A DNA stretch of 64,000 nt from Escherichia phage vB_EcoM_DalCa (NC_054908.1), one strand, 5' to 3'; shown: positions 58,045-63,260, counted from the stretch's first letter. Numbers and translations: made by a program. The notes: generated by a model from the letters alone, not told the origin.

Positions 58045-58262
58045 GTAACCTTTAAGCAGTATTCTTCTACATGCTGTTTACGACCTTTCTTATCAATAAA
58101 GGTATATTCAACGAATGTTCCAATGTAGTCTTTATCTACATCATGCGGACTATTAATTGGACATTTAGTACGGCAAATGCGTTCCCATTGACGAATAATT
58201 ACTGCCTTATTCTTTGGGTCATATGGATGTGGATAATGTATATTCATAATAACGGTTCCCAA
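58035..58262 (-). CDS. hypothetical protein
   Basis: 75 aa ORF. Confidence 0.45.
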   Translation of the reverse strand: MGTVIMNIHYPHPYDPKNKAVIIRQWERICRTKCPINSPHDVDKDYIGTFVEYTFIDKKGRKQHVEEYCLKVTWL

Positions 58263-58711
58263 TCAACAATCACAATTTCTAATTTAGAGGAATATGTATC
58301 TAAAATCCCCTCAATAATATCCCAGTTCCCTTTACCTATGCCTGCACCAATCCTAGGCATATAGATTGTAGGTTTAATCAGTTTATTTTCACCAAACTCA
58401 TTTAATTCTAACATACAATTCATTAAAGCGGAATACTCAAAATTTGGCCCTGGTTGAAATTGAGTATAAAGGTTGAAGCAATACGCTTTATGAGTCCTAA
58501 AGTATTTTTCATAGACTGAGTAAGAACCGAGTTTAGTTACATCACCCCATTCAGTCTGTAATTTATCAGCTTCCAAAATTTTAGGGAAAGCTTTGGTTAA
58601 TTGACCCGCTACGCCTGAACCCATAGTATGAAAACAATTGCATCCATGCGCAATATTTTTACCTTCAGCGAAAAGGGCGACAATATCGCCCTTGATATAT
58701 TTTACAATCAT
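58244..58711 (-). CDS. macro-domain protein (ADP-ribose binding/processing)
   Basis: 155 aa; macro-like motifs NIAHGCNCFHTMGSGVAG and MPRIGAGIGKG. Confidence 0.6.
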   Translation of the reverse strand: MIVKYIKGDIVALFAEGKNIAHGCNCFHTMGSGVAGQLTKAFPKILEADKLQTEWGDVTKLGSYSVYEKYFRTHKAYCFNLYTQFQPGPNFEYSALMNCMLELNEFGENKLIKPTIYMPRIGAGIGKGNWDIIEGILDTYSSKLEIVIVDWEPLL

Positions 58712-59049
58712 CTAGTACTCAATCCTCGATTATAAGAATCTACTAAACGGTCAACCATTGAATGACAAGCGGCTTTATCTTTCTCCTCCGCAACTGAACA
58801 TTCTAAGGTATTCCACTTTTTAGCATATCGTTTTAACAATGTATCATTTTTGTATCTGCTTGATTTATCTCTTTCTCCGTCTTTATATGCATATATTAAT
58901 TTCTGCGCAAATTCAGCTTGGCATGCTTTATTTTTCCCGCAATAATCCGCTGCAGTACGGTTTACATACTCTCTAATTTCAGTATATGATGTATCTGCTA
59001 ACACAGAAAATGAAATTAATCCTATACATAAAACCAAAATTTTAGTCAT
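58708..59049 (-). CDS. secreted small protein
   Basis: 113 aa; signal peptide MTKILVLCIGLISFSVLA; four Cys. Confidence 0.5.
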   Translation of the reverse strand: MTKILVLCIGLISFSVLADTSYTEIREYVNRTAADYCGKNKACQAEFAQKLIYAYKDGERDKSSRYKNDTLLKRYAKKWNTLECSVAEEKDKAACHSMVDRLVDSYNRGLSTR

Positions 59050-59587
59050 TTACTATTTCCAAAAGTTTATTATTTTTAAGGTAATTAGCCTTTTCTAGGA
59101 CTTCAGAAGCATATTTAGAACCTGCTTTAACATTCCATCCCGAATTATAAGATGATATTGCTTTTCTTATATCACCCTTATGTATATTTAACCAATAAGA
59201 AAGTTCAATGTACGCCCAGGAAGCTGAATTGGACCGTTTATTCAACATTCTTTTTATTTCAGCATCGGTCATATTATAACCAAGTTCCTTGACTCTCGCT
59301 CGCATAGTAGGCAAATAATTTTGGAACATTCCATAGGCATGATGCTTTGGTTTAGATTTTAAATTAACTCCGGCAGAGCTTTCTTGCCACAAAATAGCAG
59401 CCATTATATGACCCAATCCGCTCTTATGGATGTTTTTGTGTGTTTTATATTTTCCATCCTTAGAAAATTGTTCCCCGAATTGATACGCGTAACGCATGTT
59501 ATCGAGTTGGACATTACTGAAAGTATGCTCGGAGCTATGTGCCATCATTGAAATGGCCAATAGACCAGCGAGTAGTGCTTTTCTCAT
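59042..59587 (-). CDS. secreted SLT-domain lytic transglycosylase-like protein
   Basis: 181 aa; signal peptide; SLT-like motifs WQESS, GMFQ, SYNSGW. Confidence 0.55.
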   Translation of the reverse strand: MRKALLAGLLAISMMAHSSEHTFSNVQLDNMRYAYQFGEQFSKDGKYKTHKNIHKSGLGHIMAAILWQESSAGVNLKSKPKHHAYGMFQNYLPTMRARVKELGYNMTDAEIKRMLNKRSNSASWAYIELSYWLNIHKGDIRKAISSYNSGWNVKAGSKYASEVLEKANYLKNNKLLEIVND

Positions 59588-59594
59588 GCTTACC

Positions 59595-60056
59595 TCATTG
59601 AGTTTTAATTACTGCTTTAGAAGCCTTTCCTGGTAAACGACGACTGTTGATAATTGCCATCCTACATTGAAGTGACGGGTCTTTGAACTTCGCGTTAGGT
59701 TTACAAACTGTAAATCCAAGCCAAAGATTTCCATCTGTGATTTCTAAACGTCCAGGACGATATTCAACCCCATCAATAAAATCCTCGTCAATGTCAGGAC
59801 GCGGAGGCATACTCAGGAATTCATTAACTTCTAAAACATGGTCTTTTATTTTATGGAATAATTCAAAAACATATGTCTCATCAATCTCCCGTTGAATTGC
59901 ACGATCAAGAAGATGTTGAGAATATTTTAGATGAAACGATGAGACTCCTGCTGCTTTTGATGCCTCACGAATCTCATTGTTAATTTGACGAAACTCCGAC
60001 TCAAAGTGACGACGAAGCTTATTTCGACGGATAAAAACTTCTGTATTGATAGTCAT
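59595..60056 (-). CDS. regB: RegB endoribonuclease
   Basis: 153 aa as T4 RegB; GAGGAG RBS; early promoter immediately upstream. Confidence 0.8.
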   Translation of the reverse strand: MTINTEVFIRRNKLRRHFESEFRQINNEIREASKAAGVSSFHLKYSQHLLDRAIQREIDETYVFELFHKIKDHVLEVNEFLSMPPRPDIDEDFIDGVEYRPGRLEITDGNLWLGFTVCKPNAKFKDPSLQCRMAIINSRRLPGKASKAVIKTQ

Positions 60057-60083
60057 GTTATTCTCCTCTTAACTGATAGAAAA

Positions 60084-60113
60084 ATTATACCACAGTCAAG
60101 AGGAAAAGTAAAC
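60084..60113 (-). promoter_or_regulatory. T4-type early promoter upstream of regB
   Basis: minus strand GTTTAC, 18 nt, TATAAT. Confidence 0.6.
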
Positions 60114-62253: not shown

Positions 62254-62670
62254 TTAAATGTAAATATTTTTGCCGTAATACTTATACCAGTGTGGCTTCA
62301 TTAAAATTTTTTCATCGAGTCGTTGTTGACTCAACTTAATAGCTGATTTGCATGGATTATAATCATTTTTCCATTCTACTGGAATATCGCTGATGTCAGG
62401 AACTTCAGTATCTTTTATACTGAACCCGCGTTTTAAGCATTCCGTTATAATGTCCGATTGACGCTTTCGCAAAAATTCTAACTTATCGTAAAAGAAAGTA
62501 ACATGACCAGAACCTAAAATAAATTTAGAAGATATTTTAAAATCTTTAACGCGCTTACCGTTTGCCACATGCTTACGAACTATACCAAAAACACGCGGCA
62601 ATTCACGGTATTCTGCGATTAAATGTTGATCAGCAAGTTCAGATACTAAAGTCAAATTAATACGAGTCAT
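62254..62670 (-). CDS. denV: endonuclease V (pyrimidine dimer DNA glycosylase)
   Basis: 138 aa; near-identical to remembered T4 DenV ([17 protein letters not shown]...WYKYYGK). Confidence 0.92.
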
Positions 62671-62694
62671 TTTATCCCTCCAAGTAACTGTGAA

Positions 62695-62725
62695 TATACT
62701 ATCACAATTCTAGGAGAAAGTAAAC
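62695..62725 (-). promoter_or_regulatory. T4-type early promoter upstream of denV
   Basis: minus strand GTTTAC then TAGTATATT. Confidence 0.5.
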
Positions 62726-62729
62726 AACT

Positions 62730-63260
<531 letters not shown>

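Follow-up and report, generated by a model that had tools for sequence, protein, structure and literature searches.

Gene vs.1 in the early region of a T4-like phage as a putative exported lytic transglycosylase-like protein

Introduction

The early region of T4-like phages raises a question at the locus between regB and vs: namely, whether an enzyme cutting the bacterial cell wall is encoded among the early genes and exported to the periplasm of the infected cell. T4 lysozyme, the product of gene e, is a GH24 hydrolase that has no leader and depends on the holin for access to the wall, and the tail lysozyme gp5 is a second such wall enzyme; to our knowledge, no place is established in the T4 infection cycle for an enzyme that cuts the wall early from the periplasm. 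In a stretch of 64,000 nucleotides of Escherichia phage vB_EcoM_DalCa (NC_054908.1; the window), an open reading frame at this locus had been read, from the sequence alone, as a secreted lytic-transglycosylase-like protein (the original prediction).

The similarity of the corresponding T4 gene, vs.1, to the SLT domain is already known. Indeed, it was published by Nolan et al. by 2006 (PMC1524935), corroborating earlier PSI-BLAST matches to lysozyme, and is present in GenBank annotations, where some records label the gene "vs.1: transglycosylase SLT domain-containing protein." Finding vs.1 in the window correctly re-identifies a gene that was already annotated, and adds nothing beyond the existing annotation. 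In our full-text literature search on vs.1, no enzymology, localisation or phenotype study was hit, and the comparative-genomics note of 2006 was the only functional one; the full-text search for P13311 hit unrelated papers only, and that for early periplasmic phage transglycosylases gave nothing apparently relevant. Two functional-genomics studies of T4 also hold no biochemical, localisation or genetic experiment on Vs.1 itself. Here, we have computed the gene identity, leader, fold, motifs and catalytic-residue conservation of vs.1, and ask what its product would do in the infected cell.

Results

Identity and neighbourhood of vs.1

The limits originally given for a protein of 181 residues coincide exactly with those in the ORF listing, on the minus strand (Table 1). 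The phrog_600 profile matches residues 1-178 of the product (E 5.6e-69), and the lone substitution is at position 72, where the window has Ala and the compared T4 record (UniProt P13311, T4p112) has Gly. With the same length, neighbours and strand logic as T4 Vs.1 (P13311, PHROG 600), and with a 2.3-kb stretch spanning the gene that is 98-99% identical to many Tequatrovirus records, the ORF is solidly identified by sequence as the Tequatrovirus gene vs.1 in a close relative of T4, effectively the same gene.

The original placement in the vs/regB early region was also borne out, with regB directly upstream and vs directly downstream. The genes follow the order of regB, vs.1, vs, tk.4 (macro-domain), tk.3 to tk.1, and thymidine kinase (tk) as in T4. 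Within the tk-denV early region, vs.1 is likewise flanked by regB and vs in RB69, Bp7, and F48. That the gene lies outside a lysis cassette is right insofar as it is beside regB and vs and not beside e, but e is itself among the early genes on the same strand, and the lysis genes of T4 are scattered and not grouped as a cassette.

Table 1. Features of the vs.1 locus, in positions of the window
Feature	Position	Strand	Remarks
vs (named valyl-tRNA synthetase modifier)	58708..59049	minus	immediately downstream of vs.1; phrog_1256
Overlap of vs.1 end and vs start	59042..59049	minus	8 nt, ATGACTAA; vs has no Shine-Dalgarno of its own
vs.1 coding sequence	59042..59587	minus	181-aa ORF, ATG start; 180/181 identical to T4 Vs.1
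Motif IV tyrosine, Y159	59111..59113	minus	invariant in the close-homologue and distant-subfamily alignments
Motif III, S146-Y-N-S-G150	59138..59152	minus	counterpart of A-Y-N-x-G; wide-family alignment
Motif II, G86-M-F-Q89	59321..59332	minus	counterpart of G-L-M-Q; G86, F88, and Q89 invariant in close homologues
Motif I, E69-S70	59378..59383	minus	E69, predicted catalytic acid, at the C-terminal end of helix 59-70
Predicted Sec signal peptide	59534..59587	minus	codons 1-18, MRKALLAGLLAISMMAHS; read from sequence; leader conserved across the family
GAGG Shine-Dalgarno of vs.1	59593..59596	minus	5 nt before ATG; overlaps the TGA stop of regB
regB endoribonuclease	59595..60056	minus	immediately upstream of vs.1, same direction; Pfam REGB_T4, E 1.4e-68
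Sigma-70-like promoter match	60084..60112	minus	TTTACT, 17 nt, TATAAT, extended TG; upstream of regB; consensus scan only
T4-type lysozyme e	62730-63224	minus, as vs.1	about 3.1 kb upstream of vs.1

Homologues of vs.1 were found in 2012 of the 50,697 phage records, in Straboviridae, Ackermannviridae, and Ounavirinae, and the ten commonest first words of the organism names of these phages are all Gram-negative genera or "Enterobacteria." In Ackermannviridae and Ounavirinae, the homologue is located amid early/DNA-metabolism genes and not amid structural or lysis genes. It lies near gp46 in Kuttervirus Cba120 and between rIIB, an nrdA-like gene, and polynucleotide kinase in Erwinia phage M7, while metagenomic relatives are surrounded by small early-type ORFs together with glutaredoxin and dCMP deaminase; in these contexts, therefore, the gene is consistently non-structural and outside the lysis genes.

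When 185,579 bacterial and archaeal species genomes were searched with peptide patterns of the T4 subfamily, no relatives were hit. A scan with a pattern of the distant subfamily, with one genome per species, gave 72 loci, mostly on the chromosomes of enterohepatic Helicobacter and Wolinella, where the relatives are of ~241 residues and lie beside housekeeping genes such as murI, rho, and glyS. The vs.1 family is hence not purely viral.

Fold and active site

SLT (PF01464) was the sole significant Pfam family for the vs.1 product, with a narrow pass (E 4.8e-5; 23.4 bits against the gathering cut-off of 21.3 bits). The match recurred in 26 of 29 homologues with identities as low as 41% (best E 1.3e-7). 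No NCBIfam model matched Vs.1. HMMER with the single Vs.1 sequence gave nothing significant among all PDB sequences, and the family profile reached only goose-type lysozymes there, weakly (E 0.31-3.1).

Absence of an SLT fold in structure prediction had been named at the outset as a result that would speak against the reading, and the AlphaFold model of Vs.1, which was built from the 29-sequence alignment (pLDDT 88.5, pTM 0.83), matches GH23 folds. Indeed, the best 30 Foldseek matches in the PDB were all GH23 enzymes, including MltD, a Ralstonia GH23 chitinase, goose-type lysozyme, Pseudomonas Slt, E. coli Slt70, LtgA, Cj0843, the phi6 P5 lysin, and the T7 core protein, with probabilities of up to 1.0, TM scores of ~0.45-0.54, and modest E-values (best 7e-3). 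Among the predicted viral structures of BFVD, vs.1 orthologues were followed by phage LT_GEWL proteins and internal virion proteins. The comparison with SLT domains, which had also been proposed, came out in part: hhalign of the vs.1 family aligned E69, in the register expected, with QES of E. coli Slt70 and IES of MltE, which contain the catalytic Glu of each enzyme, but the scores (E 0.33 and 0.15, respectively) are non-significant alone.

By the definitions of the four motifs of family-1 lytic transglycosylases, all four are present in Vs.1 (Table 1), as the original claim of SLT-like catalytic motifs had it. A profile search of 1.84 billion representative proteins retrieved 420 relatives at E ≤ 1e-3, and conservation was counted in 138 full-length representatives that were pairwise <50% identical and aligned to the vs.1 family model. 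A match of 2679 residues (P0091) in the representative search was discarded as spurious, being a repetitive protein with no SLT motifs. Among these divergent relatives, Glu69 and Ser/Thr70 were each kept in 138/138, and this argues strongly for an active enzyme and not a binding-only relic. The remaining groove positions were also well kept, namely G73 and G86 (134/138 each), Y147 and G150 (136/138 each), N148 (117/138), and Y159 (127 of the 128 aligned), while Q89 was replaced by His in about one third (51/138). Three further residues are specific to the family: W67 (115/138), E128 (119/138), and W132 (132/138).

In the loop from E69 to G86 (SSAGVNLKSKPKHHAY), no conserved Asp/Glu was found in either the close-homologue or the distant-subfamily alignment. 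Since a single catalytic Glu is followed by Ser with no conserved second acid in the following loop, "lytic transglycosylase-like" fits Vs.1 better than the "muramidase-like" of the original wording, which nonetheless was right in separating the protein from lysozyme e.

Export leader

A signal peptide had been claimed as well, and the N-terminus of Vs.1 has, by sequence heuristic, the look of a typical cleavable Sec leader: a positive n-region (MRK), an h-region of 13 residues (ALLAGLLAISMMA), and HS before the next Ser, so that A-H-S occupies -3 to -1. Cleavage after S18 is predicted to leave a mature protein of 163 residues (18.8 kDa, pI 9.65). Residues 1-20 of the model are of low confidence (pLDDT 53-54). 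The signal peptide was assigned by a manual rule and a hydropathy heuristic, by which an N-terminal hydrophobic stretch is present in 119 of 136 full-length family representatives (88%) versus 8 of the 73 ORFs of at least 100 residues in the window; most of the leaderless representatives look like truncated gene calls. Although the leader sequence drifts, the A-x-[SGA] cleavage pattern is kept in close homologues. In the distant phage subfamily, furthermore, two Cys residues are conserved, one directly behind the leader and the other close to the C-terminus, as would be expected of a periplasmic disulfide.

Expression

The start of vs.1 is directly preceded by TGAGGTAAGC, which includes the GAGG Shine-Dalgarno; this site has no GGAG (RegB) motif. 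The promoter match upstream of regB is a candidate early promoter from which regB, vs.1, and vs would be transcribed together, and the total of sigma-70-like matches in the region in the consensus scan is no more than expected by chance. A search for MotA-box-like patterns in the minus strand immediately before vs.1 gave no middle-promoter candidate.

Published T4 data are informative in this respect. In the supplements of a time-resolved omics study (PMC9697503), the RNA of vs.1 (P13311) is early and its protein kinetics are "middle," and the protein is listed there as detected by mass spectrometry during infection with rising intensity. In CRISPRi-ART (PMC11879866 supplements), vs.1 was "Semi-Fit" (0.81, p 0.099), being one of the five "Semi-Fit" T4 genes of "purely unknown function" (PMC11879866), and its neighbours regB and vs were "Not Fit." In transposon mapping by HIDEN-SEQ (bioRxiv 10.1101/2025.11.20.689424 supplements), vs.1 was classed as non-essential, with disruptions at 46 of the 52 TA sites.

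The neighbouring gene vs

Translational coupling of vs.1 and vs is likely because the start of vs overlaps the stop of vs.1 and has no Shine-Dalgarno of its own, and the overlap or abutment of the two genes is conserved in RB69, Bp7, and T4, and across four genera. The weak knockdown signal of vs.1 could also come partly from polar effects on the coupled vs.

The Vs protein is of note in its own right. Its N-terminus (MTKILVLCIGLISFSVLA, followed by DT) is signal-peptide-like, and its four Cys residues are conserved in full-length homologues of Mosigvirus, Dhakavirus (Bp7), and Marfavirus. Vs is modelled (pLDDT 74.6) as a bundle of four helices, in which each of the two hairpin turns carries a pair of Cys residues (37/43 and 84/95). 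Comparison of this model with PDB structures gave no significant neighbour, and identification of Vs with a known lysozyme inhibitor or Spackle accordingly found no support. N-terminally His-tagged Vs was reported to be insoluble in E. coli (PMC8076793). All of these features are surprising in a protein that would modify valyl-tRNA synthetase in the cytoplasm, and suggest that vs.1 and vs may encode a pair of co-made exported proteins.

Going further, the two genes might constitute an early periplasmic module, in which the transglycosylase is accompanied by a two-disulfide, four-helix Vs as its partner or brake. The leader-like N-termini of both proteins, the conserved Cys residues of Vs, the missing ribosome-binding site of vs, and the conserved overlap or abutment are in favour of such a module. 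Vs is found in 794 phage records, however, versus 2012 for vs.1, and most phages with vs.1 have no vs; there is also no sign of a physical link between Vs.1 and Vs. We consider the module quite unlikely. Vs as an obligatory partner of Vs.1 was rejected as a general rule, since vs.1 is by far the more widespread of the two and has no vs beside it in RB43, Cba120, or Erwinia phage M7. If true, the module would alter the wall of the infected cell and thereby superinfection, lysis-from-without or lysis timing, and the ORF named "valyl-tRNA synthetase modifier" would not be a simple cytoplasmic factor.

Discussion

The profile match, the fold, the conservation of the motifs and the leader, the synteny, and the published expression data support the reading of Vs.1 as an SLT/GH23 enzyme that is exported by Sec, has its gene in the early region, and is separate from lysozyme e. 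As a whole, the explanation that Vs.1 is an exported early lytic transglycosylase serving as an accessory wall-trimming enzyme appears probable. Its GH23 identity, taken alone, is somewhat more probable than that; catalytic activity and export, both predicted, are each less so, and confidence in any specific physiological role is low.

In terms of chemistry, Vs.1 might instead be a GH23 hydrolase, a goose-type-lysozyme-like muramidase or a chitinase-like enzyme, which would use water and a second acid and give no 1,6-anhydroMurNAc. Goose-type lysozymes are, after all, the only PDB sequences that the family profile reached, however weakly; the Ralstonia GH23 chitinase and ostrich g-type lysozyme are within the top five of Foldseek, and the well-conserved acid E128 as well as W132 fall outside the four canonical SLT motifs. 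In goose lysozyme, the loop behind the catalytic Glu carries auxiliary Asp residues; the corresponding loop of Vs.1 has no conserved Asp/Glu in either alignment, and, as judged on the alignment, a goose-type auxiliary acid is thus not seen in Vs.1. With the canonical E-S dipeptide invariant and the Pfam match being SLT, we regard a hydrolase as unlikely. The opposite possibility, that Vs.1 is catalytically silent and binds peptidoglycan or a periplasmic protein of the host or phage as a decoy, blocker, or regulator, would draw on the variable motif II with its replacement of Q89 by His. Binding-only derivatives of enzymes usually lose the catalytic residues, but Glu and Ser/Thr are kept in all the 138 divergent relatives together with other residues of the groove. 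An activity of Vs.1 has never been reported, and its knockout is of little effect (HIDEN-SEQ, bioRxiv 10.1101/2025.11.20.689424), both of which are compatible with a silent protein; even so, there is hardly any likelihood of one, in our judgement.

It is also conceivable that the leader is not cleaved but serves as a tether or SAR domain, with which Vs.1 would stay inactive at the inner membrane until freed on depolarisation, acting as an auxiliary or back-up endolysin. SAR domains are rich in Ala, Gly, and Ser, and one is used by the T4 antiholin RI; the h-region of Vs.1 is likewise rich in these residues, and such an arrangement would account for an early wall enzyme staying harmless. The h-region of 13 residues is short for a membrane span, however, and is followed by a good A-x-S cleavage site, with A-x-[SGA] in homologues. 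T4 e mutants are not known to lyse, so Vs.1 would be no substitute for e. The RNA of vs.1 is, furthermore, early and not late in the PMC9697503 supplements, and we find this possibility highly improbable. A holin-dependent or SAR endolysin was indeed rejected as an identity for Vs.1, considering the early RNA, the non-essentiality, the short h-region with a cleavage site, and the presence of e as the canonical endolysin.

Among the known systems, the catalytic domain of Slt70 and MltE/EmtA (Pfam SLT, CAZy GH23) share with Vs.1 the fold class by Foldseek and the E-S, G-x-x-Q, Y-N-x-G, and C-terminal Tyr motifs. Slt70 and MltE are periplasmic, as Vs.1 is by prediction, while the sequence similarity is marginal (23.4 Pfam bits and no HMMER match in the PDB). 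Vs.1 differs from them in a family-specific N-terminal helix and hairpin (residues 23-58) and in the conserved W67, E128, and W132. MltE is a lipoprotein and Slt70 has superhelical U/L domains; unlike these, Vs.1 is predicted to be soluble and has no such superhelical domains. VirB1, IagB/IpgF, EtgA, and P19 of plasmid R1 are composed of a Sec leader and one SLT domain in ~150-180 residues, and these enzymes of secretion, conjugation, and flagellar systems are thought to open local, non-lethal gaps in peptidoglycan. Their architecture is the same as that of Vs.1, and they would be the best analogy for an early non-lytic action; we claim no membership of Vs.1 in this group, none of them was among the matches of the PDB sequence searches with Vs.1 or its family profile, and, unlike in those systems, vs.1 has no adjoining gene for a transport machine.

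Phages themselves carry enzymes with which Vs.1 can be compared. The N-terminal domain of T7 gp16, phi6 P5, and the tail or tape-measure LT_GEWL proteins, which are among the Foldseek/PHROG matches, have the same GH23 fold. These virion-borne transglycosylases are leaderless parts of large structural proteins and are delivered from outside at entry, whereas Vs.1 is small, leader-bearing, and early-encoded and hence would act from within the infected cell. A virion-associated transglycosylase was accordingly rejected for Vs.1, which stands alone, has a leader, and is flanked by regB, vs, the macro-domain gene, and tk. Lysozyme e is also made by the phage and acts on the same polymer in the same infection, but Vs.1 is of a different fold family, is predicted to be self-exporting, and is not required for lysis or plaques.

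Returning to Vs.1 as an exported early lytic transglycosylase, we infer export, the cleavage site, the transglycosylase chemistry, and the physiological role as follows. Before replication, the gene would be transcribed along with regB and the genes further downstream, its own GAGG site serving for translation; the product would then be exported by Sec, and removal of the 18-residue leader would give a basic, single-domain periplasmic protein of 18.8 kDa. Its GH23 "SLT" fold would work as a lytic transglycosylase, in which Glu69 at the helix end would protonate the MurNAc-beta-1,4-GlcNAc bond and the C6 hydroxyl of MurNAc would close the 1,6-anhydro ring, and the glycan strand would thereby be cut without water.

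Because it is made minutes after infection and is dispensable for plaque formation, Vs.1 is considered to be an accessory enzyme, which would make limited nicks or trims in the host sacculus and would not be the lysis enzyme. Indeed, given that Vs.1 is dispensable and, to judge from e mutants, cannot replace e, its action must be limited. One point against this explanation is that early production of an active enzyme of this kind would appear hazardous to the phage, and the present results offer no account of how its activity would be kept in check. The likeliest gain would be conditioning of the wall in the infected, non-dividing cell, which may ease expansion of the envelope and make the later lysis faster or cleaner; alternatively, Vs.1 might act on other phages attacking the same cell. 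With non-essentiality and a weak fitness signal as the functional data, these roles in wall remodelling and superinfection are guesses.

Conclusion

In conclusion, vs.1 ranks with the more broadly conserved of the accessory genes that large virulent phages of Gram-negative bacteria carry. A role of Vs.1, if shown, could add a step to the T4 cycle, be it envelope conditioning, phage competition, or release of muropeptides, and how T4 would profit from such an enzyme in the periplasm early in infection is a real question that lends itself to experiment.

Conserved residues and relatives of Vs.1

In the family alignment of Vs.1 (window 59042-59587, minus strand), the predicted exported lytic transglycosylase, with its full-length relatives, we noticed three family-specific residues that lie outside the four canonical SLT motifs: W132 is kept in 132 of the 138 relatives, E128 in 119 and W67 in 115. 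E128 could be a second acid with a role in either catalysis or substrate binding.

Relatives in the Vs.1 family, about 241 aa long, are encoded on the chromosomes of Campylobacterales, enterohepatic Helicobacter and Wolinella among them. Two of these loci were examined for their neighbours: namely, the relative in H. pullorum adjoins murI, rho, and a two-component system, and that in H. cinaedi adjoins glyS. At these two loci, the neighbours are housekeeping genes and do not look prophage-like. Also, among the phage relatives of Vs.1, a distant subfamily, represented by alignment A3 (P0137, P0144, P0197, and others; loci L005-L008), is encoded in phage-like contigs alongside glutaredoxin and dCMP deaminase. 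Its aligned members have a conserved Cys residue right after the leader and a second one near the C-terminus, and this pair probably forms a disulfide joining both ends of the protein.

Genes and translation signals around vs.1

Features of the vs.1 and denV-e regions and chromosomal loci of Vs.1 relatives
Feature	Position	Strand	Remark
tk.4	window 58244-58711	-	product has a macro domain (Pfam Macro, at E 2.9e-6) and matches phrog_335, labelled "phosphatase"
vs	window 58708-59049	-	annotated valyl-tRNA synthetase modifier
GAGG	window 59593-59596	-	vs.1 translation-initiation region; without GGAG
GGAG	window 60063-60066	-	regB translation-initiation region; AAGAGGAGAATAACATG
denV	window 62254-62670	-	
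lysozyme e	window 62730-63224	-	
Chromosomal Vs.1 relatives	L016:6001-6726, L052:5938-6663, and about 70 more loci (L012-L083)		

The start of vs overlaps the stop of vs.1 by 8 nt without a Shine-Dalgarno sequence of its own, and the end of vs in turn overlaps tk.4 by 4 nt. The N-terminus of Vs, MTKILVLCIGLISFSVLA|DT, resembles a signal peptide, and the predicted mature protein (95 aa, 11.0 kDa) has four Cys residues kept across genera; in the predicted structure, a four-helix bundle, the hairpin turns carry the Cys pairs. Such features are unexpected in a cytoplasmic factor, and on sequence and modelling Vs looks like an exported protein.

Elsewhere on the same strand, denV is directly followed by lysozyme e (window 62254-63224), whereas in T4 the internal-protein genes ipII and ipIII are interposed between the two.

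In terms of translation initiation, GGAG, the cleavage motif of RegB, is present in the initiation region of regB itself. Since the corresponding region of vs.1 contains GAGG in the absence of GGAG, translation of vs.1 may be spared RegB cleavage at its ribosome-binding site.
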